Of a DNA stretch of 64,000 nucleotides, positions 11,915 through 58,030 are shown piece by piece. The DNA lies in the IMG/VR virus record IMGVR_UViG_3300045988_183796. The stretch is one strand, 5' to 3'. Position 1 is the first letter of the stretch, and every line of letters begins with the position of its first letter. A program made the translations under genes and the position numbers. Below the pieces are notes generated by a model that saw nothing but the letters and a program-made list of their open reading frames with translations, searched no databases and was not told the DNA's origin. The stretch comes from a virus.

Positions 11915-12043
11915 CCTGGTCGGAACCGTAGGTGCTTGAAACCGTAGGTACTTGCCTAAAGTTGAGCGAAATGTACTTGCGGGAAGCGTAGCCGCAATAG
12001 ACTACTCCGAAAGTACCGTAGGCCCGCATACCGTAGGTCATAC
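11915..12043. repeat. Cluster of CGTAG-core direct repeats (ACCGTAGGTRC x4 and GAAGCGTAGCCGC)
   Basis: aaccgtaggtgcttg, aaccgtaggtacttg, gtaccgtaggcccg, ataccgtaggtcat and gaagcgtagccgc are read directly from the sequence. Related clusters lie at 13890-13990 and 57960-58030. Confidence 0.6.
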
Positions 12044-12411
12044 AGTCAACAACCCCGCCCAAACCGGTTCACCGGTTATAGACGGGGCTTGCGGGGCAAC
12101 CCGTAAGCCCGGTTGATTAGCCTTGGTGAACGGCAACTTCGGTTGCTGCGAACTCCGTTATGCATTTGATGAGCAATCATCTTCATAATATAGGCACCCC
12201 GATATGCTCCACAAGTGTCGGGCTCTGCGGGCAGTGTATGTATCAATGGCGCAAGCCGTTGATATGTATTACGTTAAAAATCTCTAAGGGTAGGAGATGT
12301 GCGGCTGCCATGCCGAAAGGCTGAAACAGTGCATAACATTGGCGAAGTGGACCACAGGGCGCAAGCCCTGACTTATAGTTTCATTACTATTTAACGAAAG
12401 GAGTATCTTGC
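12044..12411 (+). ncRNA. IscB-associated omega-RNA (HEARO-like) scaffold, copy 1
   Basis: About 365 nt of stop-rich non-coding sequence ending exactly at the iscB ATG. Contains GNRA-capped stems (cagggc-gcaa-gccctg; gcttgcgggg-caa-cccgtaagc; accggttcaccggt). Its 5' and 3' blocks are shared with a second copy at 30880-31198, and the two copies show compensatory base changes. Confidence 0.6.
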
Positions 12412-13605
12412 ATGAGCACTTGCGTTTGTGTTCTCAGCAACAGTGGTGAACGCTTAATGCCTACCTTCCGTCTTGGCAAGGTACGCCGACTCTTGAAAGA
12501 CGGAAAAGCAAAAATCGTTAAGCACCATCCATTTACTATCCAGTTACTGTATGACAGTAAAACAAACACGCAGCCCATCGAAATCTGCGAGGATGTGGGC
12601 TACAACTACATCGGCATCAGTGTAAAAAGTCAATCTCACGAGTATGTATCTGCGCAGTATGATACATTACAGGATGAGAAAGCCTGCCACGACAGTTGTC
12701 GTAAGTTGCGCCGAACCCGCAGAAATAGACTGCGCTACCGTAAACCGCGCTTCGATAACCGCAAGCGCGGCGAAGGTTGGCTTGCTCCTTCTTTGAAGCA
12801 TAAGAAAGAACTCAATGTCAACGTTGTCAAGATGTATTGTGCAGTAATGCCCATTACTCATGCAACGGTTGAGGTTGGTTCTTTTGATACGATGCTTGTA
12901 AAAGCAATTCAGGAGGGAAAAGCCATTCCTGAGGGAGCAGACTACCAGAAAGGTCCCCGCTACAACTTGGCAACTTTGCGTGAGGCAGTGTTCTACCGTG
13001 ATAATTACACCTGCCAAGTTTGTGGACGCAAAATCGCGGATGGTGCCATTTTACATATGCACCACATGTTCTACTGGAAAGGAAGACACGGCTACCAGCT
13101 TGATGAGTTGGTTACAGCGTGTGAAAAATGCCACACGCCAGCAAATCATCAAAAAGGCGGCAAGCTCTTCGGTTTTGGCGAAGATAAAGAATTTGCCAAT
13201 CTTTCAGGTGCAGCGTTTATGAACGCTGTTTGCTGGCAGATAGTAGATGCACTGCACGCCACATACGGTAAGGAATTTGTGACCATCACTTATGGTGCGA
13301 TGACAAAGGAAAAGCGAATCATTCTTGGCATAGAGAAAACCCACAACAACGATGCGTATGCAATGGGAGATTATCATCCGGTACATCGTTGCGTGTTTAG
13401 GCATTACCAAAAACGACGCAGAAACAATCGTGTGCTGGAAAAATTCTACGATGCCACTTATATCGACACCCGCACCGGTAACAAAGCAAAAGGTAAAGAA
13501 CTATTTAACGGCAGAATTAGCCGTAATCACAAAAAGAATTCTGAAGACCTGCACAAGTACCGCAGCAAAAAGGTATCGAAGGGCCGTCGCTCTATAAGAA
13601 GGTAG
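12412..13605 (+). CDS. iscB: IscB (IS200/605 OMEGA RNA-guided HNH/RuvC nuclease)
   Basis: N-terminal PLMP-type motif (SGERLMPTFRLGKVRRLLKDGKAKIVKHHPFTIQL). RuvC-I EDVGYNYIGISV. Arg-rich bridge helix RKLRRTRRNRLRYRKPRFDNR. RuvC-II ATVEVGSFD. HNH YTCQVCGRK...HMHH...ACEKCH. RuvC-III THNNDAYAM. No TnpA nearby. Confidence 0.8.
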   Translation: MSTCVCVLSNSGERLMPTFRLGKVRRLLKDGKAKIVKHHPFTIQLLYDSKTNTQPIEICEDVGYNYIGISVKSQSHEYVSAQYDTLQDEKACHDSCRKLRRTRRNRLRYRKPRFDNRKRGEGWLAPSLKHKKELNVNVVKMYCAVMPITHATVEVGSFDTMLVKAIQEGKAIPEGADYQKGPRYNLATLREAVFYRDNYTCQVCGRKIADGAILHMHHMFYWKGRHGYQLDELVTACEKCHTPANHQKGGKLFGFGEDKEFANLSGAAFMNAVCWQIVDALHATYGKEFVTITYGAMTKEKRIILGIEKTHNNDAYAMGDYHPVHRCVFRHYQKRRRNNRVLEKFYDATYIDTRTGNKAKGKELFNGRISRNHKKNSEDLHKYRSKKVSKGRRSIRR

Positions 13606-13889
13606 CGCTATGCAATTCAGCCATACGACACTGTGCGTCTCGAAGGTAAAACATACATTACAAGCGGGTGCCATAATAAAGGCACAAGACTTTTGATTCC
13701 TGCTAATGGGAAAAACAAGTCCGTAGCAATTTCCAAAGTTCAAGTTGTTTGCCATGCGGGAGCATGGATACAAATCATCTAAATATTGAAAGGAGGTAAG
13801 CAGGAAATGCTGTATCTTAGTCTTTTCTAAGAAACGCATTCCTCCCCACCTAAGCCTTACGGCTATAGATGGGGTGTCCTGCTCCATTA

Positions 13890-13990
13890 TCATGAAGCGT
13901 AGCTGCTTGTAAAGAAATGAAAGACGGATGACGGAAGCGTAGCCGCTGCCCGGTAACAGGCTGCCGGTTGCGTAGCTGCCATTCGTCTTT
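13890..13990. repeat. Three GCGTAGC(T/C)GC repeats with about 34-nt spacing
   Basis: gaagcgtagctgc, gaagcgtagccgc and ttgcgtagctgcc are read directly from the sequence. They lie downstream of iscB and upstream of gene 14014. Confidence 0.55.
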
Positions 13991-14013
13991 TTTGGTTTAG
14001 AGGAGAGACGAGA

Positions 14014-14247
14014 ATGGTATATGAGGTAATCAGTCCACGCCCACATGGTTCAGAAACATTCGTGGGATTGCATACAGAATACCCGGAATGCATCGACCCG
14101 TTGAGTGTGCAGGAAGCGATGCTCAGCGGCGGTAACAAAATTACATTCAAGGGCACTGAGAAAGAATATGAGGCGGTCAAGAAAAAGCTGGCAGCCAAAG
14201 TCAAGGTGACCATCATCAAAGAACAGAAAACGGAGAAAGAAAAATAA
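14014..14247 (+). CDS. Small hypothetical protein
   Basis: RBS AGGAGAGACGAGA before the ATG. 77 aa with a Lys-rich C-terminus. Confidence 0.5.
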   Translation: MVYEVISPRPHGSETFVGLHTEYPECIDPLSVQEAMLSGGNKITFKGTEKEYEAVKKKLAAKVKVTIIKEQKTEKEK

Positions 14248-14248
14248 T

Positions 14249-14998
14249 ATGGTAAAGACTGATTTCAAGAACACTTATGAAGCATTTATGCATTGCGATA
14301 AAAACAAGCTGGCGAAAGAATTTGCTGCCATGTATTCCGATAACGAGGAACAGGCGGCAGCAGTTAAGGAAGTCGATAGAGCATTTGCCAGAATGGAGAC
14401 CGTCACGCCAAAAGCAGTAAACCCGGATGAGCAAAGTATCATTGTGGTTTGCAAGGGATTTGGCGATGAAGGCGATGACACTGTCTGTATCGAAGTGAGA
14501 GACCTCCGTAACTGGAAAGAAAAGCACACGAAAAAGTCTGAGCCTATTAGTGACGAGATGCTGACCTTTATGAGCACGGACGAAATCGAAAACGCGGTGA
14601 TGAATCAGGACCTTCCCACGAAATATGCTTTTGAACTCAGCGCTTGGGACGAAATTCTTAGCTGGAAACTTGCACCATCTAGTATCTACATCTACGGCCT
14701 TGAGTTTTGCCTGTCCCGTGTGTTGTGGGAAATGACATTCTTCGGAGTGGATGAATCCGGTGTGGAGTTGGAAAAGGAAAAGCTCGATACGAGATTTGAG
14801 GAAGCGCAGAGGTCTTTTGATGAAAACAAAGAACCTCAAATCGGATTCTCGATTGAAGACATTGCTAAGAAACTTCTCGGCGATGATTATACAGAAGACT
14901 GGTATCCCGAAAAGGAGCAGGAACGCGACCGCCGAAATATGGTTATTTCCTCCTATAAGGACAACAATGAAATGGAACGGCTGCTCATGATGCTTTAA
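14249..14998 (+). CDS. Hypothetical protein
   Basis: Follows the upstream gene immediately. Coding-like acidic protein. No motif I recognise. Confidence 0.55.
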   Translation: MVKTDFKNTYEAFMHCDKNKLAKEFAAMYSDNEEQAAAVKEVDRAFARMETVTPKAVNPDEQSIIVVCKGFGDEGDDTVCIEVRDLRNWKEKHTKKSEPISDEMLTFMSTDEIENAVMNQDLPTKYAFELSAWDEILSWKLAPSSIYIYGLEFCLSRVLWEMTFFGVDESGVELEKEKLDTRFEEAQRSFDENKEPQIGFSIEDIAKKLLGDDYTEDWYPEKEQERDRRNMVISSYKDNNEMERLLMML

Positions 14999-15023
14999 GA
15001 GAAAACGAGAAGGGGAGATGAGG

Positions 15024-15863
15024 ATGAGCGAAATCTTCGTGGCGGGAGATATCCATGGAAACTATCAAGGATTGATGGAATCTCTCAATGCAGCAGGCTG
15101 GCAGGAAGGCGATACCATCATCTGCGTGGGAGATATCACCGACCGTGGAAAAGATAATGCCAGAACGGTGTCCTTTCTGCAGGAGCATGAATGTAATGTG
15201 AGATTGGTTCAGGGCAACCATGAGCTTCAACACAGGAAGATGCTTCAATACTATCATGTGTTAATCAAAGTCCCCCAAATTCGATTGTTTGCGGCAGGAA
15301 TATTCAGAACATACAAGGAAGGATATACTTATCCCAAAACAAAAGAAGAACTCAAAGAGTATGAGTGCAGTGCCGATAAACGAATCGAAATCATTCAGGG
15401 AAAGCCTAAGACCTTTCATGCTTTTGTTCGAGCCTTTATCGCTTATACATTAGCATGGGAAGACGATAGCCTTTGGAAGATTATTCTGTACTTGCTGGAA
15501 GTGATGTGCGGCAATCCCTATGATGCCGAAAGAACTATATACGAGTATCTCTCCTGTACAAGGAAACAAAGAGCAGCGTTTGAATGGCTTTGGAATCAGA
15601 CGGCTACTGAGGTTAATATCGATTATACGGAACCATATAAGTATCAGCATATAGTGATTACGCATAATAATCCTTTTGGAAGATATTATGGCTATGACCC
15701 GGATGAGGTACGGTCTGGACACGATAAGACGCTCTATATCTTTGGACACATCCCGCATTCCGAAATCGTCAGGTTTGACAGGGCTTGTTCTGGATGCACT
15801 TATCTGGACATTGACACATCTCCGACCTCGGTCGGCGTCATTAAGCTGAGTGATTATCTCTAA
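15024..15863 (+). CDS. Calcineurin-like metallophosphoesterase (Ser/Thr phosphatase / ApaH-like)
   Basis: GDIHGN, GDITDRG and GNHE motifs. RBS GAAGGGGAG. Intrinsic terminator downstream. Confidence 0.75.
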   Translation: MSEIFVAGDIHGNYQGLMESLNAAGWQEGDTIICVGDITDRGKDNARTVSFLQEHECNVRLVQGNHELQHRKMLQYYHVLIKVPQIRLFAAGIFRTYKEGYTYPKTKEELKEYECSADKRIEIIQGKPKTFHAFVRAFIAYTLAWEDDSLWKIILYLLEVMCGNPYDAERTIYEYLSCTRKQRAAFEWLWNQTATEVNIDYTEPYKYQHIVITHNNPFGRYYGYDPDEVRSGHDKTLYIFGHIPHSEIVRFDRACSGCTYLDIDTSPTSVGVIKLSDYL

Positions 15864-15873
15864 GAAAGCATAA

Positions 15874-15916
15874 GCACCATGGGGGCAGAGAGCCTCTGTG
15901 GTGCTTTTTCTTTTTG
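15874..15916 (+). terminator. Rho-independent terminator
   Basis: Stem gcaccatgggggcagagagcctctgtggtgc followed by a T-run. Confidence 0.7.
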
Positions 15917-16519
15917 TGCGGGTTCCCTTGCTCATACGAAAACGATGCGCAGGTAAGGGCTCTCTGGCGGATGTGAGGCGGTAAGGCAGCTAATCTAAAG
16001 CCTTGCTATACAATGCTCTGATGAACTCTCTACTAAGCCCAGATGTGGGCTCAGTGATTTTTGCGATATCATGGGCATCTGCAAAGATTCCATACTTGTC
16101 TTTCGGTGTTGGCTCTTTCCTATCAGAACAGACAGCCCGACTGGAACGAATCCAAGGCCGAGCATTCAGCTTTCGGCAGAGGACGACCGCCCTATATGAT
16201 AGGTCCAGAACGTCTGCAGCAGTTTGCGACAACTACCAGCTTGTCTTTTTGGCTGCCCGGTTGTCTCAGCAAACTCTCCTGTAACCAAAACCAGAGACTT
16301 GGCTATTCGGCTTTGATAAAAGCAGTTCACAAAGCGGACTTCCCATTGTATAATAGTGACATACATTTGAGTTTCGCAGGACTGATATCAGGTGGAGCAG
16401 ATGGGCAAGAATCGGATGAACCGCAGGGAAGCGTGAGCAAGGAAAATCACAAAGACCACAAATATAATCTTGGCAGAACGGGAAAATACCGATATCATTC
16501 AAGGAGGGAGGAATGTGAT

Positions 16520-17917: not shown

Positions 17918-18291
17918 AGACGATGCACAATGATAGCAAGGAGGGTAAATACCAAGTGATACCGATTGTATGTGTCGATGACCGATTCGGCATGGCGTTC
18001 ACCAAGCGGCGCTGCAGCTCGGATATGGCCGTCCTCAAAGATATTCTTGGCAGAACGGAAAATGCCAAGCTAAGGCGGCTGTGATAAGGGCCTTCCATCA
18101 CGCCAGGCGACTGCAAAAAGAAAAGGGTAGTGTTAGTTGTCCAGAAGAACTGGGAGGTTCAGTCGGGTACTATCTTTATCCCGTGTTTCTTCGAATCGGT
18201 GTATGCACGAAAAAGTAGAGGGTCACGAAGCCGTGGCTCTCTTTTGCTTTATCTGATATAATATAGCCAAAAATATTGCGGAGGAAGTCGC

Positions 18292-19437: not shown

Positions 19438-19446
19438 GGAAAAGAA

Positions 19447-19478
19447 AAAAGAGGGGCTTAGAACAGCTCCTCTTTTCT
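19447..19478. terminator. Bidirectional intrinsic terminator
   Basis: agaggggcttagaacagctcctct is flanked by an A-run and a T-run, between convergent genes. Confidence 0.65.
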
Positions 19479-19485
19479 TGTTGCT

Positions 19486-23449: not shown

Positions 23450-23790
23450 GGGAGATTTCCTGGCGTTTGGAGAAATACCCATAGGACTTTGAGCTTTGCT
23501 GCACAAAAACAAGCCTCCGCTCTTTGGCGGGGGCTCTTCTTGTATTCTCAAAAACGTTGAATTTAATTTCACTGAATTCCGATTCAGCATTATTTGGCGT
23601 GGCTCAGCTTGGCCCGGCAGCACGATACCATGGCGGCCGAACACAATGATTCTCCAGAACGGAATTCTCGACATTCGGTGCGAATCGTATATAATCTAAA
23701 TAATAAAACAGTATAGGAATATAGCTAAGCCGCCAAGCGAGTGAAATCGTTTGGTGGCTTTTCTTTTTGCTACGGAAAAGTAGATATTGT

Positions 23791-23875
23791 ACTTGTCATG
23801 AGCTTGTTGCATACTTGCTACGAACTTGCTAAAAACTTGCTAAGCACTTGCTACGCTTTACCTCGAAGCAAGTTC
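23791..23875. repeat. Iteron-like array: about five direct repeats of ACTTGCTA at 11-bp spacing plus one inverted copy
   Basis: atacttgctacg / aacttgctaaa / aacttgctaag / cacttgctacg, then gaagcaagtt. Read directly from the sequence. Confidence 0.65.
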
Positions 23876-24373
23876 ATTTTTTTGCGCGAAAGAATATCGG
23901 ATAAGTGACGCTTCCTACTCGTATGACCGAGAGAAAACATGCAAAGACTCTACCATTCTGGTAGGGCTTTTTTGCTGCCCAAAAAGTTGGAAAAATGTCG
24001 CAAGCGAGCCGCTGAAACCTCAGAATTTTGTCGCAGCCTTTCCGAATATGAGATGTATCTCACAAAAGCGAAATGCGCTGCTTCGTATCTGTGGTGAGAC
24101 AATCGGAACAGGCGAATAGCAAAATCTCAGCTGCCGCAAATGCTGTCAAGTTCAAATCACAACTCCCAAAAGTCTCGTTTGGGAAAGCCTGCATTAAAAG
24201 TTTCGTTCTGGGAAATGCAGAGGGGAAAGGAAAATGTCGAAGCATATATGCACTGATTTTCTTCTTGCTATTTGTGCAATCCGCTCAAATTGGCGATAAA
24301 TATTCCCAAAATAAATAAGTCAAAGTGCTTTTGGTGTATAATGGCTCTGACAAACAGAAAAAAGGAGAACACT

Positions 24374-30615: not shown

Positions 30616-30643
30616 TTGCGCTGCTGTGCGAACTTCGTACAAT
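30616..30643 (+). promoter_or_regulatory. Regulon promoter (TTGCGC-tgctGTGCGAACttcg-TACAAT) driving a short terminated transcript
   Basis: Member of the conserved-spacer promoter family. Followed by an intrinsic terminator at 30747-30785. Confidence 0.55.
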
Positions 30644-30746: not shown

Positions 30747-30785
30747 CCCACAGGTCATTCTCTCACCTGTGGGTTTTGTTTATTG
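30747..30785 (+). terminator. Intrinsic terminator (perfect 9-bp stem plus T-run)
   Basis: cccacaggtcattctctcacctgtggg ttttgtttatt. Confidence 0.7.
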
Positions 30786-30810
30786 CGGAATCGTGCGAAT
30801 TGCAGATAAT
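30783..30810 (+). promoter_or_regulatory. Regulon promoter upstream of omega-RNA-like copy 2
   Basis: TTGCGG-aatcGTGCGAATtgca-GATAAT. Confidence 0.55.
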
Positions 30811-30879
30811 TAAAGACAAAGCGATTGTGAGATGGGGCGATACCGATGCAGTAGGGATGAGAATCTTAGCAGCTAAAAG

Positions 30880-31198
30880 AGTCAACAACCCCGCCTAAAC
30901 CGGTTCGCCGGTTATAGACGGGGCTTGCGGGGCAACCTGTAAGCCCAGTTGATTAGCCTAAGCCCATTGCTCCGGCAGTGGGGAAAACTACGTTGTGTAC
31001 TAATAATATAGGCACCTTATCCATGCTCCACAAGTGGTGAGCTCTGCAGGCGTTTCGTTAAACATCTCCGAGGGGAGGAGAAGTGCGAGCGTCATGTCGA
31101 AAGGCTAAAACAGTGCATAACATTGGCGAAGTGGACCACAGGACGCAAGTCCTGACTTATAGTTTTATTACTATTTTACGAATGGAGAAACAAAAATT
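30880..31198 (+). ncRNA. Omega-RNA/HEARO-like scaffold copy 2 (no iscB), abutting the flotillin start codon
   Basis: Shares the 5' ~75-nt and 3' ~95-nt blocks with copy 1. The middle is divergent. Shows compensatory base changes (caggac-gcaa-gtcctg versus cagggc-gcaa-gccctg). Confidence 0.5.
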
Positions 31199-32842
31199 AT
31201 GGTATATGTGATTGGAATTGTAGCAGCCCTGATTATTCTCTTTGGATTTCTCTGCTACAAGAAAGCTCCGCCCACGGAGGCTATCGTTGTAACTGGCTTT
31301 GGCCTGTCTAAGCCTAAAGTGGTTTGCGGAAAGGGTACATTTGTTCTGCCCGTTCTTCAACGGGCTGACCGACTGAATATGCGCCTTTTGAAAATCGATG
31401 TCAAGACTCCTGAAACAGGTGTTAAGACGAAGAACGGCGTAAGTCTCTGGATTGACTCTGTTGTCACGATTCAAGTCTACAGCGAAAACTCTACCGTTCT
31501 GGATGAAGAAGTGAAGGCATCCGGTCTGAAAGACGCCAAGGCGTACATCATGTCCCGCCAGCAGGCAGCCATCTCGAACTTTCTCGGCATGAACGAGCAG
31601 GGCATCAATGAGAAAGTTAATGACGTTCTGCAGGGCAATTTGCGTGAGATTGTCTCTGACATGACCGTTGACCAAATTCTGACGAACCGCAAGCAGATGG
31701 CTGTGAGCGTTATCGAGAATGCTCGCCCCGACCTTGCTAAGATGGGACTTGAGGTCGTGACTTTTAATGTCCAGGACATCAGGGATGCAGTGGATGTTCA
31801 AGGCCACAATCACGGCGTTATCGAAGCTATCGGCATCGAACAGGAAGAGCTCGTAAAGAAACAGGCTGAAATTGCCCGTGCTCAGGCTGCCCGTGATGTA
31901 GCCTGCGCGAAGGCCGATGCTGAGATGGCTGCAAATGCCAAAGAAGTTGAAGCGCAGACTGCGATTGCAAAACGCAACAATGAATTGCAGCTCGCCAAGG
32001 CAAAGCTGAAAGCTGAAGCTGATAAAGCTGCGGCTGACGCAGATGCTGCCGGTCAGATTCAGATGAATCTCCGCGCCAAAGAAATCAAAGAAGCGGAAGC
32101 GGATGCTGAAATTGCCAAGCAGAAGAAAATGGTAGACCTTGCCGCACAGGAAGCCGAGGTCCAACAACGCAAACTGGATGCGGAAGTCCGCAAACAGGCA
32201 GATGCTGACCTGTACCGCCGCCAGAAAGAGGCAGAAGCCAAGAAATATGAGGCGGAACGTGCAGCTGAGGCACAGAAGTTCTCCAAGCAGCAGGAAGCAG
32301 AAGGCATCGAGCTTGTCGGTAAGGCAGAAGCTGAAGCGATTCGTCAGAAAGGCTTGGCTGAAGCGGAAGCTATGAAACAGAAAGCAGAGGCATATAAGCA
32401 GTATAACGATGCGGCTGTGGCTGAAATGCTCATCAAGGTTCTTCCGGACATTGCCAAGAGCGTGGCTCAGCCTTTGTCCAGCATTGATAAGGTTTCTATC
32501 ATTGGCGGTGATGCCTCCGGCGTATCCGGCGTTTCCGGGAACGTTCCTATCCTGATGGCTCAAACCATGCAGACGGTGAAAGAAGCGACCGGCATTGACA
32601 TGGGCGAAATTGTCCGTGCCAACAGCATCCAGGCAAAGACAGACCGCAACATCAACATTATGACTCAATGTGAACAGCCTGAGAATAACAAAGAGAAAGG
32701 AGGTGCCAAGGCAATGGAACGCGTAGAAGGCGGCTATCTGATTCATGAGAAGAGTCTCAACGGTGAGGAAGTCACTCATTTTCGACCGGATGTGACCGAA
32801 GAAGAGAAGGCTATCATGAAAGACAAAAAAGCCAAAGATTAA
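31199..32842 (+). CDS. Flotillin-like SPFH/Band-7 protein
   Basis: N-terminal TM helix, then an SPFH domain (VVTGFGLSKPKVVCGKGTFVLPVLQRADRLNMR...) and a long EA/K-rich coiled-coil. The antisense 581-aa ORF was rejected. Confidence 0.8.
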   Translation: MVYVIGIVAALIILFGFLCYKKAPPTEAIVVTGFGLSKPKVVCGKGTFVLPVLQRADRLNMRLLKIDVKTPETGVKTKNGVSLWIDSVVTIQVYSENSTVLDEEVKASGLKDAKAYIMSRQQAAISNFLGMNEQGINEKVNDVLQGNLREIVSDMTVDQILTNRKQMAVSVIENARPDLAKMGLEVVTFNVQDIRDAVDVQGHNHGVIEAIGIEQEELVKKQAEIARAQAARDVACAKADAEMAANAKEVEAQTAIAKRNNELQLAKAKLKAEADKAAADADAAGQIQMNLRAKEIKEAEADAEIAKQKKMVDLAAQEAEVQQRKLDAEVRKQADADLYRRQKEAEAKKYEAERAAEAQKFSKQQEAEGIELVGKAEAEAIRQKGLAEAEAMKQKAEAYKQYNDAAVAEMLIKVLPDIAKSVAQPLSSIDKVSIIGGDASGVSGVSGNVPILMAQTMQTVKEATGIDMGEIVRANSIQAKTDRNINIMTQCEQPENNKEKGGAKAMERVEGGYLIHEKSLNGEEVTHFRPDVTEEEKAIMKDKKAKD

Positions 32843-32964: not shown

Positions 32965-32992
32965 TTGCTGAATTGTGCGAATTGAAGATAAT
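32965..32992 (+). promoter_or_regulatory. Regulon promoter
   Basis: TTGCTG-aattGTGCGAATtgaa-GATAAT. Upstream of gene 33047. Confidence 0.55.
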
Positions 32993-33046
32993 TAAAAACA
33001 AAAGATGCTTTGTATCAAATCGATTGAAACCGAAGAGGTGAAGTTA

Positions 33047-33851: not shown

Positions 33852-35546
33852 GTGACGAAGAAAAATATTTTCCCTGTAGTTGCAACCATCGCCGTGGTGG
33901 GTGTTGTTCTCGGCGTGTTTTCGACGACTGTGCTGCGCGACTCGAATGTCAGCATCAGCACGATGACTTCCGAGCAGGCGTATGCGGATTTAAGCGGAAA
34001 GATGAAACGTATCGGGGTGCAGGAAGTATCCGTCAATCCGCAACAGCTTGATGTATCGGAGTTTCTGGACGCAAAAGATGAGTTGCCGGATATCGACTCC
34101 TCCTACCCGTTTGTGGTGGAGGGAAACGGTGATGTCAACATTGAAATTTTCTCTTCCGGCGAGAAAGCAGCAGAATCCGGCTCCGATTCTTTCCTGACAA
34201 GCATGGCAAAGAAGTTCAACGCCCAGCACAACAAGACTTCCGGAGACAAGACTATGAGTGTCTCCCTGCGCTCCATTCCGTCCGGTACGGCGGCTGAGTA
34301 CATCTCGACGGGAAAGTATCAGCCCGAGTGCTATACCCCTTCAAATACGCTCTTTGGCGAGCTGGTGAAGAACGAGGGCGTAGAATTGACCGTTGAGGCT
34401 GACCGTCTGGTCGGCAATGTGGCGGGTATTCTCGTATCAAAGAAGACAGGGGATATGCTTCGCTCTGAATACGGTGAAGCGTCTGTTTCTTCCGTTCTGA
34501 ACGCAACCATCGATGGCAAACTCATGATGGGGTATTCCAACCCATATACCAGCGCAACTGGTCTTAACTTCCTGCTTGCTGCATTGGCAAGCAGCGGCAG
34601 CGATACGATTGTCGATACGGCTGCTGTTGAGAATTTCCAGAAATTTCAAGCGAACGTCCCTCTCGTATCCTTCACGACCCAGCAGATGGTCCAGTCGGCA
34701 GACAAGGGCATCGTGGACGGCGTTGTCATGGAGTATCAGTCTTATCAGAATGACCCGACCTTACAGCGCAACTACGAGTTCATCCCGTTCGGTGTGCGGC
34801 ATGATAACCCCCTGTATTCTATTGGAAGCATCTCGGCCGAAAAGAAGGAAGTTATTGCTGCGTTCGTTTCCCTCTGCGCCCAGAATCAGGCAGAAGCGAC
34901 GAAGGACGGGTTCAATGGTCTTGACGACTATGCTTATACAGGCAAGGCATACGACGGCAACACCATCGCACAGGCTCAGAGTGTCTGGAAAGAAGAGAAG
35001 GATTCCGGTATTCCTATTGTGGCAGAGTTCGTTGTCGATACTTCCGGCTCGATGCGCGGCGAACCCCTGAATGCCCTGAAAACCGCGATGATAAACACCA
35101 TCCAGTATATCAATGACGACAACTATATCGGCATCATTGGCTTTGATTCAGATGTCAGGGAATACCTGCCCATTGACCAGTTCTCTCTGACCCAGAAAAC
35201 TCTGTATAAGGGTGCCGTGAACTCCCTCGATGCGAACGGCAGCACCGCAATGTACAACGGTCTTTGCGTTGCTATGGACCGCATCTACCAGAAATCTCAG
35301 GAACTGGGTGGGAATTGCACGCCCATCATCTTTGTGCTCACGGACGGTGACAACAATACCGGATATGGCTTCTCCGATACGAAGAACATCATTGCCGGTA
35401 TGGATATCCCCATTTACACCATCAGCTACAACTACGCAGCGGATAGTCTTTCGGAGCTCGCTTCCATCAACGAAGCGGCAGCTATCGTTGGTAACAGCGA
35501 GGATATCACCTACAAGCTCCGCAACCTGTTTAACGCAGAGATGTAA
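33852..35546 (+). CDS. von Willebrand factor A domain protein with an N-terminal TM anchor
   Basis: C-terminal vWA/MIDAS motif VVDTSGSMRGEP ... TDGDNNTG. N-terminal TM helix. Starts 2 nt after the upstream stop. Confidence 0.7.
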   Translation: MTKKNIFPVVATIAVVGVVLGVFSTTVLRDSNVSISTMTSEQAYADLSGKMKRIGVQEVSVNPQQLDVSEFLDAKDELPDIDSSYPFVVEGNGDVNIEIFSSGEKAAESGSDSFLTSMAKKFNAQHNKTSGDKTMSVSLRSIPSGTAAEYISTGKYQPECYTPSNTLFGELVKNEGVELTVEADRLVGNVAGILVSKKTGDMLRSEYGEASVSSVLNATIDGKLMMGYSNPYTSATGLNFLLAALASSGSDTIVDTAAVENFQKFQANVPLVSFTTQQMVQSADKGIVDGVVMEYQSYQNDPTLQRNYEFIPFGVRHDNPLYSIGSISAEKKEVIAAFVSLCAQNQAEATKDGFNGLDDYAYTGKAYDGNTIAQAQSVWKEEKDSGIPIVAEFVVDTSGSMRGEPLNALKTAMINTIQYINDDNYIGIIGFDSDVREYLPIDQFSLTQKTLYKGAVNSLDANGSTAMYNGLCVAMDRIYQKSQELGGNCTPIIFVLTDGDNNTGYGFSDTKNIIAGMDIPIYTISYNYAADSLSELASINEAAAIVGNSEDITYKLRNLFNAEM

Positions 35547-35665
35547 CTCAAAAGCGCGGTTTTGTCCGCGCAGCTGCTCCAAAAGACAGCCTCCACGCGG
35601 CGAGCAGCGGGCAACGGGAGACAGTCCCGGCAAATTGTCTTTGAGACGGAAGGAAGAAGTGCCCT

Positions 35666-39759: not shown

Positions 39760-39787
39760 TTGCCCATTTGTGCGAATTGCAGACAAT
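39760..39787 (+). promoter_or_regulatory. Regulon promoter
   Basis: TTGCCC-atttGTGCGAATtgca-GACAAT. Confidence 0.55.
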
Positions 39788-39870
39788 CAGAAATAAAGCG
39801 TAAAGCAAAGGAGCTGAGTACCATCTCAAAATTTGCAAGCAAAAAGTTGATTGAGCGAAATTGCAATATC

Positions 39871-40359
39871 ATGAAAGACTACGGCAACGGCTATTCCATT
39901 GAGGAGCTTGCCGCAAAATACAGGTTGAGCGTCCGTACATGCTATCGAGCGTTAGACGACGCGAAACAGGAGGCCAGAATTCAGCTGGCACAGGTTGAGG
40001 ATGCCAGAAAAGCTGAAATCCTTGCGGCATACAAGAACAGTGTCCCTCTCAAGGAAATGATTGCGAAATTCAACGTGACAGAAGGATATTGCGGCATGGT
40101 TGCCAACGATGCGGGCCTGACTGAAAACCGCAGAAACGAGCGCATCAAAATTAGACAAAGACCGCGCAACGAGAATATCTTTCGAGAATACGAGAGTGGC
40201 GTGCCGGTGCAGAAACTATCCGAAAAGTATCAGCTCTCGGTTCCTGGTATTTACAAGGTTATCCAGCGAGTGAGAAGGCAAAAGGAGGCGATGGAGTTTT
40301 GCAATGGATTGTTAAGCAAACCAAATCGAAAGGATATGAGTTCACCTTCGATATCGTGA
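39871..40359 (+). CDS. HTH-domain protein (repeated resolvase/sigma-region-4-like HTH units)
   Basis: Repeated motifs YSIEELAAKYRLSVRTCYRAL, PLKEMIAKFNVTEGYC and VQKLSEKYQLSVPGIYKVI. The start is uncertain; a non-ATG start further upstream near RBS AAAGGAG is possible. Confidence 0.45.
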   Translation: MKDYGNGYSIEELAAKYRLSVRTCYRALDDAKQEARIQLAQVEDARKAEILAAYKNSVPLKEMIAKFNVTEGYCGMVANDAGLTENRRNERIKIRQRPRNENIFREYESGVPVQKLSEKYQLSVPGIYKVIQRVRRQKEAMEFCNGLLSKPNRKDMSSPSIS

Positions 40360-40970: not shown

Positions 40971-40998
40971 TTGCGAAACTGTGCGAATCGCAGACAAT
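40971..40998 (+). promoter_or_regulatory. Regulon promoter
   Basis: TTGCGA-aactGTGCGAATcgca-GACAAT. Confidence 0.55.
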
Positions 40999-41034
40999 TA
41001 AGAACAGATGAAGTACAAAAGCTGAGGTTACACA

Positions 41035-44104: not shown

Positions 44105-44132
44105 TTGTCAATCTGTGCGAATTACGTACAAT
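44105..44132 (+). promoter_or_regulatory. Regulon promoter
   Basis: TTGTCA-atctGTGCGAATtacg-TACAAT. Confidence 0.6.
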
Positions 44133-44165
44133 GAAAAATATAAACCAAAAATATATCTTATCGTT

Positions 44166-44200
44166 GTCCCGCATGAGTTGTTTGTGCGGGACTTTTTTGT
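44166..44200 (+). terminator. Leader-embedded intrinsic terminator/attenuator between the promoter and gene 44221
   Basis: Perfect 8-bp stem gtcccgca...tgcgggac followed by TTTTTTG. Confidence 0.6.
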
Positions 44201-48229: not shown

Positions 48230-48265
48230 TATGGCAGCGAATCACCTTGCCGCATTCAGAACAAC

Positions 48266-50389: not shown

Positions 50390-50418
50390 TTGTGCATCCG
50401 TGCGAATTGGATATGATA
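50390..50418 (+). promoter_or_regulatory. Regulon promoter preceded by three GATTTTGCC direct repeats
   Basis: TTGTGC-atccGTGCGAATtgga-TATGAT. Repeats at about 50360-50390. Confidence 0.5.
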
Positions 50419-50441
50419 GGAAATATAAGATAAATAAGTGT

Positions 50442-50523
50442 AGCCGCAGAGATTTCGATTTCTGCGGCTCATTTCTTTTGTGGTCCCCATGCGGATGAAA
50501 ATGTCTGCGTGGGGATTTTTTAT
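50442..50523 (+). terminator. Two tandem leader hairpins with T-runs between the promoter and the methyltransferase gene
   Basis: agccgcagagatttcgatttctgcggct followed by catttctttt, then tccccatgcggatgaaaatgtctgcgtgggga followed by tttttt. Confidence 0.5.
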
Positions 50524-50537
50524 TTGGAGATATAGAC

Positions 50538-51632: not shown

Positions 51633-51646
51633 ATGGTGGAATTGGA

Positions 51647-53589: not shown

Positions 53590-53604
53590 TGGTGGGAGCA
53601 TATC

Positions 53605-54063
53605 ATGAAAAAATATTGCTATTTCATGTTCGGTATGTTCACCGGCACAGACGGAAACAAATACAACATCTGCATCCCGTCGCCGTTTGTCCGAGACTCA
53701 AAAGCTGAAGCTATGAAGGATGAAAATTTTGCTTACCGCTTTTTGACAATCGACTCGGCCGGACCTATGCTGGTCGCTTTTGCAAACGAGCACTTCAAAC
53801 CCATGAACAACGGCAAAATGCAGTTGAAATGCTGGGTGGATAAGGATGTTGCCGGGAACTATACCTTTGAAGAATTCAAGAAAAATGGCGGGTATATTCG
53901 ACAACTGAAGCCGAGTAGCAAGGGAAAATATGTAACTGATGAGTCGGACTTTATTGATGCTGATAAGGCATTTGCCGATGTATTCCCCAATGTGGAGCAA
54001 GGGAAGCTCTACTATGTGGATGATGAGGCTTATTTCATCGGGAATGTGACGAAAATCAAATAA
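53605..54063 (+). CDS. Hypothetical protein
   Basis: RBS GGTGGGAGCATATC. Confidence 0.5.
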   Translation: MKKYCYFMFGMFTGTDGNKYNICIPSPFVRDSKAEAMKDENFAYRFLTIDSAGPMLVAFANEHFKPMNNGKMQLKCWVDKDVAGNYTFEEFKKNGGYIRQLKPSSKGKYVTDESDFIDADKAFADVFPNVEQGKLYYVDDEAYFIGNVTKIK

Positions 54064-54085
54064 TATAAAGCTGGAGGGACCCTTT

Positions 54086-54442
54086 ATGGTAGTTAAAGGA
54101 GAAGCTTGTTTTGTTTCTATGCAGTTGAGCATGAAATCTACTGACACCACGAGCAAAGGAATTATCATGCCAGATTTTCTTTGCTCTAGTGCAGATTTTT
54201 CGCTTCCTTACAATCCAGAGATTATCGACAAATTTGTCTATGACGACAAAATGATTTCTCACATGGTCCACGAATTGTACAGTCTCGTGAAGTGCCTACG
54301 CCCTGATAAATTGGATGACAAAGAAAAATGCCTGGTACTGGATATTGACGTGGATGATGAATTCTATGATTTCTACGATGTATATGTAACTATGAGCAAA
54401 GATACTTGTACCTACAGGGTCGAAGAAGATGATGACTACTGA
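54086..54442 (+). CDS. Acidic small protein, family A paralog 1
   Basis: VHELYSLVKCLRPDKLDDKEKCLVLDIDVDD aligns with paralogs at 54707 and 56697. Start is 54086 or 54122. Confidence 0.5.
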   Translation: MVVKGEACFVSMQLSMKSTDTTSKGIIMPDFLCSSADFSLPYNPEIIDKFVYDDKMISHMVHELYSLVKCLRPDKLDDKEKCLVLDIDVDDEFYDFYDVYVTMSKDTCTYRVEEDDDY

Positions 54443-54630
54443 TATACTGTGCTCTCTCATCGAACGATGTAACGTTCTGAACAGCGCTCATGGCGCTGCT
54501 TGGGCTGACAGGCACCGGAGCTTATCACTAAAACCTTGAAAAAAGAAGTGGAACGCAACAATATAGAAAATTATTAAAAAATATTTTTTTGAGAAATCCG
54601 ACCTAGCCGGATTCCACGCTACTGGACCGA

Positions 54631-54658
54631 TTGACCGTCCTTGCGAACTGCGTAGAAT
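54631..54658 (+). promoter_or_regulatory. Regulon promoter (variant TGCGAAC)
   Basis: TTGACC-gtccTTGCGAACtgcg-TAGAAT. Confidence 0.5.
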
Positions 54659-54706
54659 TAAAGGTGTAAGAAGAAACCCGTAACACACACAAAGGGGAAT
54701 ACCAAC

Positions 54707-55027
54707 ATGTATACTTGCACCTTAAAATTCGAAGCTACCGCGTTCCGCGAGGATGATGACAACGAGCTCGAAAGCATCTCTGCTTCCATCAGCGTCCCCG
54801 TAAAAGGTGATGATGAAACGGTTGAAGAAACGCTGAGTAATGAGAAGCTGATTGTCCGCACTGTTGTAGCGTTGTACGAAATCGTTAGCTACCTGCGCCC
54901 CAACTGGCTGGACAACGAGGCTACCAGCCTGACGCTGGATATTTCCATCGATGGCAGTGAAGTTCAGTCGCGTGGCGGCCTTGTTACCATGAAACCGGAA
55001 GGCTTTATCTTTAACCTGGATGATTAA
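54707..55027 (+). CDS. Acidic small protein, family A paralog 2
   Basis: RBS AAAGGGGAATACCAAC. About 40% identity to 56697-57017. Confidence 0.55.
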   Translation: MYTCTLKFEATAFREDDDNELESISASISVPVKGDDETVEETLSNEKLIVRTVVALYEIVSYLRPNWLDNEATSLTLDISIDGSEVQSRGGLVTMKPEGFIFNLDD

Positions 55028-55040
55028 GTAAAGTTGATTG

Positions 55041-55078
55041 GGAGTCTTACCTGCAAAAGCGGGCAAGACTCCTTTTTT
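55041..55078 (+). terminator. Intrinsic terminator
   Basis: ggagtcttacctgcaaaagcgggcaagactcc followed by a T-run. Confidence 0.65.
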
Positions 55079-55094
55079 ATAAGCAGGTGAACAT

Positions 55095-55982
55095 ATGAAC
55101 ATTGCGTTTTATGACGGTATACTTTTGCAAGTGAACTTGCATAACAGCAAAGCCACCGTTCTTTCGAAACACAAAATTGGAACCGACACCATAGATTTCT
55201 ACAACTACTTCACAAAACACCGCCCGTCTCCTGAAGAGCCGCTTTTGGAGTTGTCGAACTTTCCGGCAAATGAAGCCATCAAAATCATTTCCGGGCAGCC
55301 CCTTGTCAATCAATTCTTTTCGGATTACATCGATACTAGCCAGGAAAACAATCAGGCCACTGCAAAAGAAGCTTTGGCCTATACTCACAATCTTGTCCAG
55401 AATGTTTTTTCTGATATAGATGCTGCTTTGGCGATGCATTCTGGTGTTAATGCTAAGGGATTCGAAGGTAACCAGATGCTTTTCGGAGCTGACCAGTTCA
55501 CGATGGTCTTTGCTCTGTTGGGCAATCGAATTGTTCAGGTCTACACGGTAAAAGACCTGCGTGAATATCTCCTGCTTGATTTATACTACGCCAATTTTGT
55601 GCCGGATTTCTCAAAAAAGATTGCTATTTGCCCTTGCTGCGGAAAGACTTTCCGTTTGAGTCAGCGGAACAAGGTATACTGCAGCAAGGCTTGCAAAGAT
55701 AAAAGCATTCGGGCAAACAACAAGAAAGACCCATACTATTCAAAATACCGATACCTGCAGCAATACAACAACCGGCAACTCAACAAGCAGCGCAGGCGTA
55801 TGGCAGATTCATCGCTACAAGCGCAGAAGCTGCGAGATGCCTATACCACCTGGAACAAATGGGCACGCTCTGAATACAAGCAGGTGAGTGGCATCTCAGA
55901 CCACACGCAGCGGGTGAATGTTGAAGAGTTCGATGGGCGCTTGAAAGAGCGGTGGAAGGCTCTAACATGGGACCTGAATTAA
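55095..55982 (+). CDS. Hypothetical protein with a C-terminal zinc ribbon and a basic tail
   Basis: CPCCGKTF...YCSKACKDK motif. RBS AAGCAGGTGAAC. Confidence 0.55.
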   Translation: MNIAFYDGILLQVNLHNSKATVLSKHKIGTDTIDFYNYFTKHRPSPEEPLLELSNFPANEAIKIISGQPLVNQFFSDYIDTSQENNQATAKEALAYTHNLVQNVFSDIDAALAMHSGVNAKGFEGNQMLFGADQFTMVFALLGNRIVQVYTVKDLREYLLLDLYYANFVPDFSKKIAICPCCGKTFRLSQRNKVYCSKACKDKSIRANNKKDPYYSKYRYLQQYNNRQLNKQRRRMADSSLQAQKLRDAYTTWNKWARSEYKQVSGISDHTQRVNVEEFDGRLKERWKALTWDLN

Positions 55983-56003
55983 AGTGCTCAGCATGAAGAA
56001 CGA

Positions 56004-56040
56004 CCTACCTGCCATAAACAGGTGGGGCTTTTTCTTTTTG
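56004..56040 (+). terminator. Intrinsic terminator
   Basis: acctgccataaacaggtgggg followed by cttttt. Confidence 0.55.
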
Positions 56041-56105
56041 TGTTGACAGCAGGCTAAAGAGGAGAAAACCGCCCCAATGGAATGCTCATTCCAGAACGTC
56101 AGAAA

Positions 56106-56133
56106 TTGACTCATTATGCGATTTGCCTAGAAT
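56106..56133 (+). promoter_or_regulatory. Regulon promoter (variant ATGCGATT)
   Basis: TTGACT-cattATGCGATTtgcc-TAGAAT. Confidence 0.45.
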
Positions 56134-56158
56134 GAAAAGAAATGAGGCAGAAAGTGAG

Positions 56159-56368
56159 ATGCGTAATATGTTTGCAATGTGCCGAGACGGTTCAGCCGTT
56201 CATGTCTTCGGAAATACCATCAGCGTCAGTGGCCGGGGCATGAGCGAAACCTACGTCCTCTGCGGGAACATGCTGACCGGTCCGCACGGGTTCCGGTCGA
56301 TGAACTGCAGAAGTATCGATGAGGCATTTTGCCTGGTGTGCGGCGTACATGGCGGTAAGAGCTGGTGA
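56159..56368 (+). CDS. Small protein, family B paralog 4
   Basis: ...YVLCGNMLTGPHGFRSMNCRSIDEAFCLVCGVHGG matches family B. Start is uncertain (56159, 56168 or 56177). Confidence 0.4.
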   Translation: MRNMFAMCRDGSAVHVFGNTISVSGRGMSETYVLCGNMLTGPHGFRSMNCRSIDEAFCLVCGVHGGKSW

Positions 56369-56384
56369 AGCAAAATTCTTGATT

Positions 56385-56460
56385 TGTGTTGTTTTCGGCC
56401 CCTCTAAAGGTCTTGACTTGTGAGGCTTTTGACCTTCCAAAAGTCTTGATTTGTGTTGAA
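56385..56460. repeat. Three direct repeats (G)TCTTGAYTTGTG upstream of a promoter
   Basis: ttcttgatttgtgtt, ggtcttgacttgtgagg and agtcttgatttgtgttg. Confidence 0.5.
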
Positions 56461-56482
56461 CGCCAAGGCAAATACAAGAAGT

Positions 56483-56510
56483 TTGACACCTTATGCGACT
56501 TGCATACAAT
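56483..56510 (+). promoter_or_regulatory. Regulon promoter with a consensus -35
   Basis: TTGACA-ccttATGCGACTtgca-TACAAT. Confidence 0.55.
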
Positions 56511-56696
56511 AATACTTATGCAGTACACCAGAGCAAACAAACGGATATATACGCTTGCACAGTATAGCAAGTACGGCAAAATAAAAGCTCGAAACAGATT
56601 GAAAAGTATAAGACCGTATAATAGAGTCAAGCAGGTTGAAAGGTAAAAGATGGTTTCTAGGACTGCATAAATATAATCTAAAAGGAGATATTCCCA

Positions 56697-57017
56697 ATGA
56701 ACACCAGTATCTTGAAACTTGAAGCCAGCGTGATTCGCCCCAAAGATTTTGACGAACTCGACGGTCTTGCTGCTTCCATCAGCTTCCCCGTCGAATACGA
56801 TGATGAGGCAATCGGTGAGGCTCTGGCCGACCAGGACCTGATGGCCTATGTCGTCGGTGAGCTGCATGACCTCGTTGTCCGTATGCGCCCCGAATGGCAG
56901 GATAACGAAGATACCAGCCTGACTATCAAGGCATTCCTGGACGAAGCCGAGTGCCAGACGCTCAAGGGCCTTGTCGCAATGAAAGAGGACAGCTACACCT
57001 TCGTCATTGAGGGCTAA
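56697..57017 (+). CDS. Acidic small protein, family A paralog 3
   Basis: RBS AAAAGGAGATATTCCCA. Aligns with 54707-55027. Confidence 0.55.
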   Translation: MNTSILKLEASVIRPKDFDELDGLAASISFPVEYDDEAIGEALADQDLMAYVVGELHDLVVRMRPEWQDNEDTSLTIKAFLDEAECQTLKGLVAMKEDSYTFVIEG

Positions 57018-57350
57018 TAGCTAAAAGAACAAGTGAAAACCCTGCTCGCAGTAAAATGCGGGCGGGGTCTTTTTTTGTTTGACAAGGTGTGCGAGATGGC
57101 TATGATGATTATTGTATCAAAGATACCACTTACCTTCATTTTTAACATTCCGCTTTTGCAAGGACAGCCTCATTCCGAGGTTGTCCTTTTTCTTTTGCGT
57201 AACTCTCCACGGAAACACTTGTCCCCGTGTTTAACATAAATCCGCAAGCTGCTCTAAATTTTGGAACAGCTTAGTCAATTCAAATCGTACGAAAGTACGA
57301 AAACACTACGCAAACATTCTGCGTAGACTGTAAAAAAAGGAGTAATAATT

Positions 57351-57848
57351 ATGAAGTTCGAAAATCTTTACATCCGTGCCACCCGTCATGGCAGCCAGGA
57401 ACCCACCGAAATCAACCTTGCGGATGCCCTGAAGCTTCTCGGCATCCTTGACGCAGCCAACATAGCTCACTTTGACCTTGTGGTCAAGGACGAGAACGGC
57501 TGCGAAATCGCCGCCCAGGTCGATGGCGAAGGCGTCCTTTCGGACGGAATCAACATCGAAGGCGTGAACGAAGCTGGTGAACCTACCGGTTTTGCCCACG
57601 TCGCTCTCCCCAGTGAGGATTGCCCTCACATTGTCACCGAAATCCTGTGAGGCGACGGTGACACCGAAGACCTTGACCATCCGGTTCTCGTGCGCGTCCC
57701 TGACTGCGTGCGTGCCGAAGGGGACAAGAGTCTCCGCAAGGTGTACTTCGACAAGGAAGTTGCGAGTGCAACTGGCTTCAACACGGAGGAAGACCAGTCC
57801 AAGCTCAACGCATCCACCGTGGATGAGTACGCCCTCATGAAGAAGTGA
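57351..57848 (+). pseudogene. Acidic protein ORF interrupted by an in-frame TGA at 57648-57650 (recoding/readthrough candidate or nonsense pseudogene)
   Basis: RBS AAAAAAGGAGTAATAATT before ATG 57351. After the TGA the same frame stays open for 65 more codons (GDGDTEDLDHPVLVRVPDCVRAEGDKSLRKVYFDKEVASATGFNTEEDQSKLNASTVDEYALMKK), with similar acidic composition and codon usage. Confidence 0.45.
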
Positions 57849-57959
57849 TTCTTCATTTTTTCCAAACGTTGCCTTTAAGCTTTGTTTCTAGCTGCAGTAT
57901 GAATCAAGGTTAAAATGGCCTGGCTTGAAAGTCGTTCACCTTTTGGTGAGCGGCTTTTT

Positions 57960-58030
57960 CTTTTTGCTCATTTGCGTAGCTGCGCTTCTTTGTTGTTGGA
58001 ACCGTAGGTGCCAGGATGCGTAGCTGCCAG
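57960..58030. repeat. CGTAG-core repeat cluster (GCGTAGCTGC x2 and ACCGTAGGTGCC)
   Basis: ttgcgtagctgcg, aaccgtaggtgcc and atgcgtagctgcc. Same motif family as the clusters flanking the IscB locus. Confidence 0.55.

Follow-up and report, generated by a model that had tools for sequence, protein, structure and literature searches.

CGTAG-core repeats around an IscB insertion are very probably a cis-regulatory element of a gut conjugative megaplasmid

Why should the same short repeats stand on both sides of an IscB gene, and stand again in a distant part of the same DNA? The question is raised by a stretch of 64,000 nucleotides (nt) from a virus collection (IMG/VR record IMGVR_UViG_3300045988_183796; 'the window', in whose positions all coordinates are given). 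Direct repeats with a CGTAG core form three clusters in the window, at 11915-12043, 13890-13990 and 57960-58030, the first two of which flank an omega-RNA and iscB. A preliminary description of the sequence had offered three accounts of them: operators for one regulator, remnants of target sites or joints of the insertion sequence (IS) that carries iscB, or a link between the repeats and the omega-RNA guide, such as homing-type self-recognition. As shown below, the repeats are very probably a cis-regulatory element of the host plasmid, and the IS is incidental to them.

The three clusters do exist as described, and hold 11 copies, all of them on the + strand. The consensus is (A/T-rich)-S-CGTAG-S'-YGC, with two subtypes, CCGTAGG and GCGTAGC. 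The five A-type copies, ACCGTAGG(T/C), lie at 11925-11935 (ACCGTAGGTGC), 11941-11951 (ACCGTAGGTAC), 12015-12025 (ACCGTAGGCCC), 12030-12040 (ACCGTAGGTCA, overlapping the omega-RNA guide region) and 58001-58011. The six B-type copies, GCGTAGCYGC, lie at 11986-11995 and 13937-13946 (both GCGTAGCCGC), 13897-13906 and 13970-13979 (both GCGTAGCTGC), 57974-57983 and 58018-58027. The spacing of the copies is irregular (14-44 nt). The suspected enrichment was borne out against 100 dinucleotide-preserving shuffles of the window: ACCGTAGG was observed 5 times (0.61 expected), GCGTAGCYGC 6 times (0.18 expected) and the looser pattern CGTAGSYNC 13 times (3.3 expected), and in each of the three tests none of the 100 shuffles reached the observed count, which excludes a chance origin of the repeats. 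Outside the clusters the pattern matches three times, always on the - strand (5720, 22373 and 54292), as often as expected by chance, so that the entire excess comes from the clusters. The motif is restricted to arrays, within these ~64 kb of the plasmid and at related loci. CGTAG is flanked by complementary bases (CC..GG or GC..GC, with no mixture of the two) in all 11 array copies, but in only 4 of 75 background CGTAG 5-mers. A literature search for the motif strings returned primers only. We also noted that GTACTTGC occurs twice inside the first cluster, at 11948 and 11973.

The history of the locus can be read from its relatives. Ten near-identical loci were retrieved with the DUF6557 protein (14249-14998) as query, and nine of them have no iscB between the genes for a 74-amino-acid (aa) and a 77-aa protein. 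In these (L001 and eight other near-identical contigs) the two genes are ~250 bp apart, and the IS-free interval holds eight contiguous motif copies. The empty site in L001 reads ...ACCGTAGGTCATACA|ATGAAGCGTAGCTG... and places the IS between CATACA and ATGAAG; it follows that the IS spans 12045-13891 and that clusters 1 and 2 are a single ~250-bp, eight-copy array cut in two. The eight-copy array is older than the IS insertion. The earlier picture of two arrays bracketing the omega-RNA-iscB unit therefore holds in that motif copies flank the unit on both sides, and fails in that they belong to one array.

The insertion itself is a non-autonomous element of the IS200/IS605 type on the + strand, and carries no tnpA. 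Its omega-RNA scaffold (12045 to ~12400, +) matches HEARO (RF02033) at 12045-12357 with 59 bits (E 1.8e-11), below the gathering score of 83, and is 83% identical to a second omega-RNA of the window (30881-31141), the similarity starting exactly at 12045. The gene iscB (12412-13605, +) encodes RRXRR (PF14239, 2.6e-45) and HNH (PF01844, 4e-07) domains. The guide TACCGTAGGTCATACA (12029-12044, 16 nt, +) comes from flanking DNA outside the IS boundary, and the iscB-distal end of the IS abuts ATGAA at 13892-13896, that is, TTCAT on the - strand, which we read from the sequence as the target or target-adjacent motif (TAM). IscB guides are encoded outside the transposon boundary and depend on transcription that enters from outside; TTCAT has been reported as the TAM of a Geobacillus IscB element; and homing on the donor joint has been described for IS200/IS605-family IscB with omega-RNA (10.1101/2023.03.14.532601). 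Homing on the empty site is expected here too, as ordinary biology of IscB and TnpB elements. The insertion resembles these elements in its scaffold starting at the IS boundary, its guide taken from the flank, its TTCAT target, its orientation, which is that of the upstream gene, and its lack of tnpA; the likeness covers the insertion and not the repeats, and the insertion differs in an in-frame TAG at codon 398 of iscB. This TAG (13603-13605), after which the frame continues for 58 further codons to 13782, may be a nonsense mutation, or may be subject to read-through or recoding. The identical 397-aa IscB product is called in L002.

Could the repeats nevertheless belong to the IS, as preferred targets, old joints, subterminal remnants or guide-recognized sites? 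One IS does sit inside an array, its TTCAT target is partly built from the GAA common before B-type copies, and the guide does contain CCGTAGG, as had been noticed. The last point is explained by the guide being read from flanking DNA: since the element inserted at a TTCAT inside the largest array, one motif copy falls within the stretch that the omega-RNA reads as guide, a by-product of the landing site. The TAM-proximal 9-mer of the guide, GGTCATACA, occurs once in the window, so the other repeat copies are not omega-RNA targets, and the suggested self-recognition falls away. The proposed comparison with IS ends went the same way, as neither GTCAACAACCCCGCC... nor ...CTCCATTATC contains the CGTAG core. 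The motif is found at only one of eight distinct omega-RNA-proximal flanks of this IS family, the seven other insertions having unrelated flanks, and there is none close to the second omega-RNA. That the repeats are remnants of target sites or joints is refuted by the IS-free relatives, in which the array is whole and unbroken; cluster 3 and the arrays of other plasmids have no IS nearby, and arrays stand in many IS-free promoter regions of related contigs. We give an IS origin of the repeats, in any of these forms, next to no credence. The landing of the IS within a motif array was chance, and the locus holds a caution for IscB biology: a repeat-like guide can arise merely from the position of an insertion.

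As a separate observation, the second omega-RNA is a solo copy, with no iscB after it. It scores 91 bits, above the HEARO gathering score, begins with GTCAACAACCCCGCC like the IS at 12045, and lies downstream of a promoter (30783-30812) and directly upstream of an SPFH/flotillin gene (31199-32842).

We then asked where the motif occurs in other replicons, by scanning a collection of viral contigs with the motif patterns; many contigs that carry it are from the gut and have a G+C content of 0.46-0.50. By VirB4 identity to the window, four lineages of the plasmid were distinguished (100%, 80%, and 78-79% in two further contig sets); the VirB4-based searches covered relatives of at least 78% identity, a second, deeply diverged plasmid group being outside the sample. 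The motif was found in at least eight sequence contexts across the four lineages, in arrays of 1-8 copies at operon junctions, and the ~60 paralogous copies seen are all co-oriented with transcription. Four paralogous contexts in gut contigs have 1-3 copies directly upstream of the -35 hexamer of near-consensus promoters, the last copy starting 15, 19, 19, 25 or 41 nt ahead of that hexamer. Subtypes follow a conserved order (B-B-B, B-B-A or B-A-B, the last being that of cluster 3), and the first copy often follows the T-run of an upstream terminator by 2-8 nt. The loci carrying these other arrays form clusters of 31, 19, 17 and 12. Motif columns are 98.6-99.7% identical as against 86-91% for spacers, a contrast that is biased by the core being partly fixed by the search pattern, the YGC extension being its sole unbiased part.

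The array ahead of the 77-aa gene is kept in all four lineages, with 4-8 copies. In the diverged lineages (L314, L322 and L046) the thioredoxin-like gene has, in addition, 3-4 copies in its leader, from ~9 nt past the predicted start site and spanning about +9 to +80, and 2-5 copies in the 5' part of its coding sequence. The window has one intragenic B-type core, GCGTAGC at 11140-11146 (+), in the 5' part of the same gene (11018-11686). The coding copies are kept in a different reading frame (aaG CGT AGC in the window, aGC GTA GCt in L314 and L046), an indication that selection acts on the DNA or RNA sequence and not on the protein. The position and orientation of the motif are conserved across plasmid lineages. 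Three kinds of match were set aside in this survey. At a G+C content below 0.42 or above 0.55, many of the viral-contig matches are tandem repeats in coding sequence and have no relation to this element. Single copies on the minus strand close to Type I arrays are antisense inside open reading frames and look like chance. ACGTAGT at 9037-9043, directly 3' of the stop codon of a 262-aa gene, corresponds to GCGTAGC in the alignment of three other lineages, which at first suggested a compensatory change of G..C to A..T; it is probably a decaying copy, because the core itself is mutated (CATAG) in 6 of 21 close relatives.

What kind of replicon carries the arrays? Nearly all genes of the window are on the + strand. 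The window starts with a type IV coupling protein (VirD4) and a VirB4-like ATPase, and its cargo includes a Y-family polymerase, a PLD nuclease, an EcoRI-type methylase, and GmrSD-like, AcrVA2-like, NADAR and macro-domain proteins. In a relative, L316, an identical VirD4 adjoins a Rep_3 initiator with more than 2 kb of repeat-rich non-coding DNA, and a RecD2-type helicase lies a few kb upstream of the identical coupling protein in a look-up relative. Beside the Rep_3 gene, L316 has ~20 iteron-like repeats AACGWAAATAAYCTC over 2 kb (2360-4205), probably the plasmid replication origin, and no CGTAG array in this region. Carrier contigs are up to 290 kb long. From the human gut, conjugative megaplasmids named Hodor have been described with Rep_3, an origin region of more than 2 kb of non-coding DNA, and VirB4/VirD4 (PMC12934698). 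On these described features, together with a size above 200 kb, a G+C content of ~47% and the frequent filing of such elements as viral, the window is part of a Rep_3 conjugative megaplasmid of the Hodor type, with a type IV secretion system (T4SS), from gut Clostridia. One carrier is named, from protein annotation: Oscillospiraceae bacterium SCCA1. Megablast of 25 kb of the window against phage and plasmid collections gave no match, and a scan of genome contigs with the three-copy pattern gave, among the matches listed, unrelated tandem repeats, mostly in high-G+C genomes, with no related element among those examined. Hodor megaplasmids are present in hundreds of metagenomes of the human gut; their description dates only from a 2026 preprint, the text of which has no occurrence of 'promoter', 'direct repeat' or 'IscB' (PMC12934698).

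On the side of gene content, the anti-defence-like cargo of 37538-61101 and of L011-L013, laid out as short same-strand cassettes, comprises AcrVA2-like, NADAR, macro-domain, MazG-like, GmrSD-like and RlaP proteins, an orphan EcoRI-type methylase and an Apyc1-like protein of the metallo-beta-lactamase fold. In L316, another IscB gene (512 aa) lies in the interval from the origin to the helicase.

We analysed the transcription context of the arrays in the window. The array of clusters 1 and 2 follows the end of the T4SS-side operon and precedes the first cargo gene. The nearest promoter upstream, predicted from the sequence, is of the sigma-70 type (10885-10913, +; TTGAGA-N17-TATAAT with an upstream TG) and probably drives transcription of the thioredoxin-like gene, of the 74-aa gene and of the array. 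No sigma-70-type promoter was found within or after the eight-copy array; a TACAAT at the insertion point has no -35 partner. The array ends in a long hairpin with a U-run (13920-13994, +), 20 nt ahead of the start codon of the 77-aa gene, in which the copy at 13937 forms the 5' arm of the inner stem and the copy at 13970 is part of the 3' arm. Each of the four lineages has the two copies nearest the start of the 77-aa gene inside such a hairpin (RNA-fold z-scores of -4.2 in the window, -2.2 in L046, -4.8 in L322 and -3.7 in L314), with outer stems that differ. The base opposite the motif's Y position makes C:G in the window, U:A in L046 and U.G in L322; in L314 the motif is paired with non-motif sequence. 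With its G+C-rich hairpin, U-run and compensating changes, 13920-13994 has the marks of an intrinsic terminator and is a putative terminator or attenuator.

Cluster 3 is placed otherwise, between a terminator and the next sigma-70-type promoter. The intrinsic terminator of the upstream unit (57927-57958, +) immediately precedes it, and its last copy ends 9 nt ahead of the -35 hexamer of the promoter at 58037-58064 (+; TTGACC-N16-TACAAT, with the conserved spacer GTGCGAATC), a member of a promoter family with at least nine members. A hairpin with a T-run (58129-58152, +) follows this promoter by ~60-80 nt, before a lipoprotein gene (ATG at 58195). The transcribed-leader position holds for the thioredoxin-gene leader of L314, L322 and L046 and for the eight-copy array, while cluster 3 and the arrays of Types I-IV are upstream of promoters.

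Among the accounts of these data we lean, tentatively and at somewhat less than even chance, to the copies being duplex-DNA operator sites of a plasmid-encoded, sequence-specific regulator that gates transcription at operon junctions. Operators for one regulator were already proposed in the preliminary description; this is the best single reading, strengthened by the motif's presence upstream of promoters and at operon junctions of many related plasmids, and candidates for the binder can be named. Such a regulator would bind the copies as duplex DNA, occlude or modulate the adjacent strong promoters and block read-through across the operon junction, and cargo and anti-defence cassettes would so be kept under common control. 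Protein binding to the motif, the duplex form of the target and the direction of regulation are all three inferred; strong promoters adjoining the arrays make repression fit better than activation. The same motif at several promoters and junctions, kept across lineages, supports an operator set, and in prior experience short repeats at several plasmid promoters are regulator sites. One candidate binder is a 162-aa Mor-family protein (39871-40359), encoded by the first gene after the promoter at 39760; it has two helix-turn-helix motifs, an N-terminal HTH_28 and a C-terminal one of the Mor/late-activator type, and is, judging by its sequence, a candidate regulator of plasmid promoter families. 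Another candidate is a 425-aa protein (9210-10487) whose N-terminus looks winged-helix-like by eye only. PDB sequence searches with both proteins gave no match. The 77-aa protein downstream of the array had no Pfam or PHROG match, and its AlphaFold2 model, with a mean confidence (pLDDT) of 63, is too poor to use.

Global regulators of plasmids with comparable sets of operators include KorA/KorB of RK2, omega of pSM19035, ArdK/StbA of R388 and Rco of pLS20. The likeness lies in a short motif repeated at several promoters or junctions of one plasmid and conserved while spacers drift, with strong promoters of transfer or establishment genes adjacent. The known sets, however, are palindromes, contiguous heptads or phased repeats in mixed orientation, whereas the CGTAG arrays have irregular spacing and uniform orientation, two covarying subtypes, copies in a terminator stem and in coding DNA, and no known regulator. 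Several observations weigh against operators more directly. A duplex operator would not need the uniform co-orientation of ~60 paralogous copies; perfect covariation of the flanks would be expected of a hairpin, or of two separate specificities, more than of half-sites that act independently; the eight-copy array has no recognizable promoter downstream; its last two copies are inside a terminator hairpin kept, with compensating partners, in four lineages; the distances to the -35 are out of helical phase; and no motif-binding protein beyond the candidates was identified.

Three of these points, the uniform orientation, the covariation of the flanks and the place of copies in a conserved terminator stem, would be accommodated if the motif acted in a transcription-coupled manner, as a single-strand hairpin signal in RNA or in the non-template strand, for antitermination or attenuation. 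A factor binding it would let RNA polymerase pass the intrinsic terminators between plasmid cassettes, either by occlusion of the terminator stem or by modification of polymerase, as by RfaH at ops or lambda N at nut. We regard this as possible but doubtful; operators are preferred to it on priors, and narrowly. The copies are strictly co-oriented with genes; their flanks covary (11 of 11 and 8 of 8 in arrays, 4 of 75 in the background); the last copies before the 77-aa gene are paired in a hairpin with a U-run in four lineages, where the partner follows the Y position; the third copy in L030 is fused to the 5' arm of a terminator; and copies occur in a leader (about +9 to +80) and in early coding sequence. 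Leader terminators are common after this plasmid's promoters, a second repeat, ACTTGCTA, has the same layout in four copies, the core GCGTAGC is one loop base from ops GCGGTAG, and the need of IscB omega-RNAs for outside transcription fits the array being transcribed. On the other hand, cluster 3 and the Type II arrays stand between a strong terminator and the promoter that follows it, a stretch in which RNA should be scarce; stem occlusion covers only the arrays that overlap terminators, and a processive mechanism makes that overlap a coincidence; tblastn with RfaH and NusG found no NusG paralog in ~2.9 Mb covering parts of plasmids; the known ops and nut sites are single, not arrays; and a stem of 2-3 bp is too weak for folding alone in RNA. 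Neither operators nor a transcription-coupled signal accounts for every context. Other roles are less probable still. The motif could be a single-stranded DNA signal at conjugative entry or in lagging-strand synthesis, a priming site or a loading site for single-stranded DNA-binding protein or primase, such that promoters of the cassettes downstream would be converted rapidly to duplex form in a new host. All the copies share one strand, in a plasmid with almost unidirectional genes, and arrays are intergenic and upstream of anti-defence-like cargo cassettes; the core presumably fits a C(GNA)G DNA mini-hairpin, and its complement carries CTA, which we take to be the initiation trinucleotide of Firmicute DnaG. 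This is nonetheless improbable, there being nothing specific in its support: 64 kb hold only two array sites, copies in a terminator stem and the conserved A/B order are left without an account, and no primase is tied to the motif. Still harder to sustain is a role as replication iterons or partition centromere. Direct repeats are arrayed at several plasmid sites, much like the three clusters of heptads of pSM19035 and the dispersed KorB sites. The Rep_3 gene, however, is flanked by the other repeat, AACGWAAATAAYCTC, which rules out Rep_3 iterons, and irregular spacing and copies within a coding region and a terminator argue against both roles. Elements of the repetitive extragenic palindromic or bacterial interspersed mosaic type (GTAG with an imperfect palindrome of 20-40 nt, usually in alternating orientation) were rejected, since a palindrome is missing next to most copies, and the repeats are all direct.

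A particular form of the transcription-coupled signal follows from the comparison with ops. In ops, GCGGTAG, the pair C3:G8 closes a G4-A7 loop on the non-template strand, and a flipped G3:C8 pair partly restores RfaH recruitment (PMC5995543). The CGTAG motif is, like ops (GGCGGTAGNNTG), on the sense strand; the two share the core GCG(G)TAGC, a C:G pair closing a small G..TA loop, pairing that matters more than pair identity, and an association with long, horizontally acquired operons, conjugation operons included. The core here (GCGTAGC or CCGTAGG) is one G shorter and is followed by YGC, the 12-nt consensus GGCGGTAGNNTG is not matched, and arrays, many of them upstream of promoters, stand in place of a single site. 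As to the host, ops is not described in Firmicutes, where these plasmids, in the ~2.9 Mb of partial sequence searched, showed no NusG paralog. That the arrays are a shortened ops analogue, with a C:G-closed G-T-A loop and a covarying second pair, read as mini-hairpins on the nascent RNA or the non-template strand and making polymerase terminator-resistant via a plasmid factor, we consider unlikely. If true, one wave of transcription would cross the terminator-separated cargo cassettes of a widespread human-gut megaplasmid, and the arrays would be an array-based code of antiterminator recruitment in Firmicutes. Attenuation by RNA repeats is known from TRAP, with (G/U)AG repeats, and HutP, with UAG repeats. 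The eight-copy array resembles their targets as a repeated UAG-containing motif upstream of and overlapping a terminator hairpin just before a gene; it differs in spacing (14-44 nt as against 2-4 nt) and motif length (7-10 nt as against 3 nt), and most CGTAG arrays do not overlap a terminator.

Taken together, the CGTAG arrays, the promoters with an GTGCGAAT spacer and the many leader terminators sketch a common scheme of control for a large anti-defence-like cargo region. Once the motif-reading factor is known, the timing of cassette expression, for example upon entry into a new host, would become accessible.

The promoter family to which 58037-58064 belongs (TTGNNN-N4-GTGCGAAT(C/T)-N3-TANAAT, sigma-70 type) has at least nine members on the + strand of the window: 23668-23697, 30783-30812, 32965-32994, 39760-39789, 40971-41000, 44105-44134, 50390-50419, 58037-58064 and 61218-61247. 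Looser versions with TGCGA are at 30616, 43381, 54631, 56106, 56483 and 57079. The conserved element between the -35 and -10 suggests a second common regulator; the lambda Q site is located between -35 and -10. Many of these promoters are followed within ~50-130 nt, before the ribosome-binding site, by a hairpin with a T-run (23727-23768, 44170-44200, 50440-50530, 58129-58152 and 61268-61313), and each such unit is either a leader under attenuation or a gene for a short RNA. In L043, two units of array, promoter, short transcript and terminator stand in tandem.

Two further features of the window were noted. The second repeat family, ACTTGCTA, comprises four copies, one every 11 nt, at 23813-23853; the last copy pairs with AGCAAGT (23867-23873), and a T-run at 23877-23883 completes a terminator-like hairpin, a layout kept, with a different loop, in the diverged plasmid L046. 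A hepatitis delta virus-like ribozyme of the Faecalibacterium prausnitzii type (RF02682, 60 bits) lies at 35573-35642, just after a vWA-domain gene (33852-35546).

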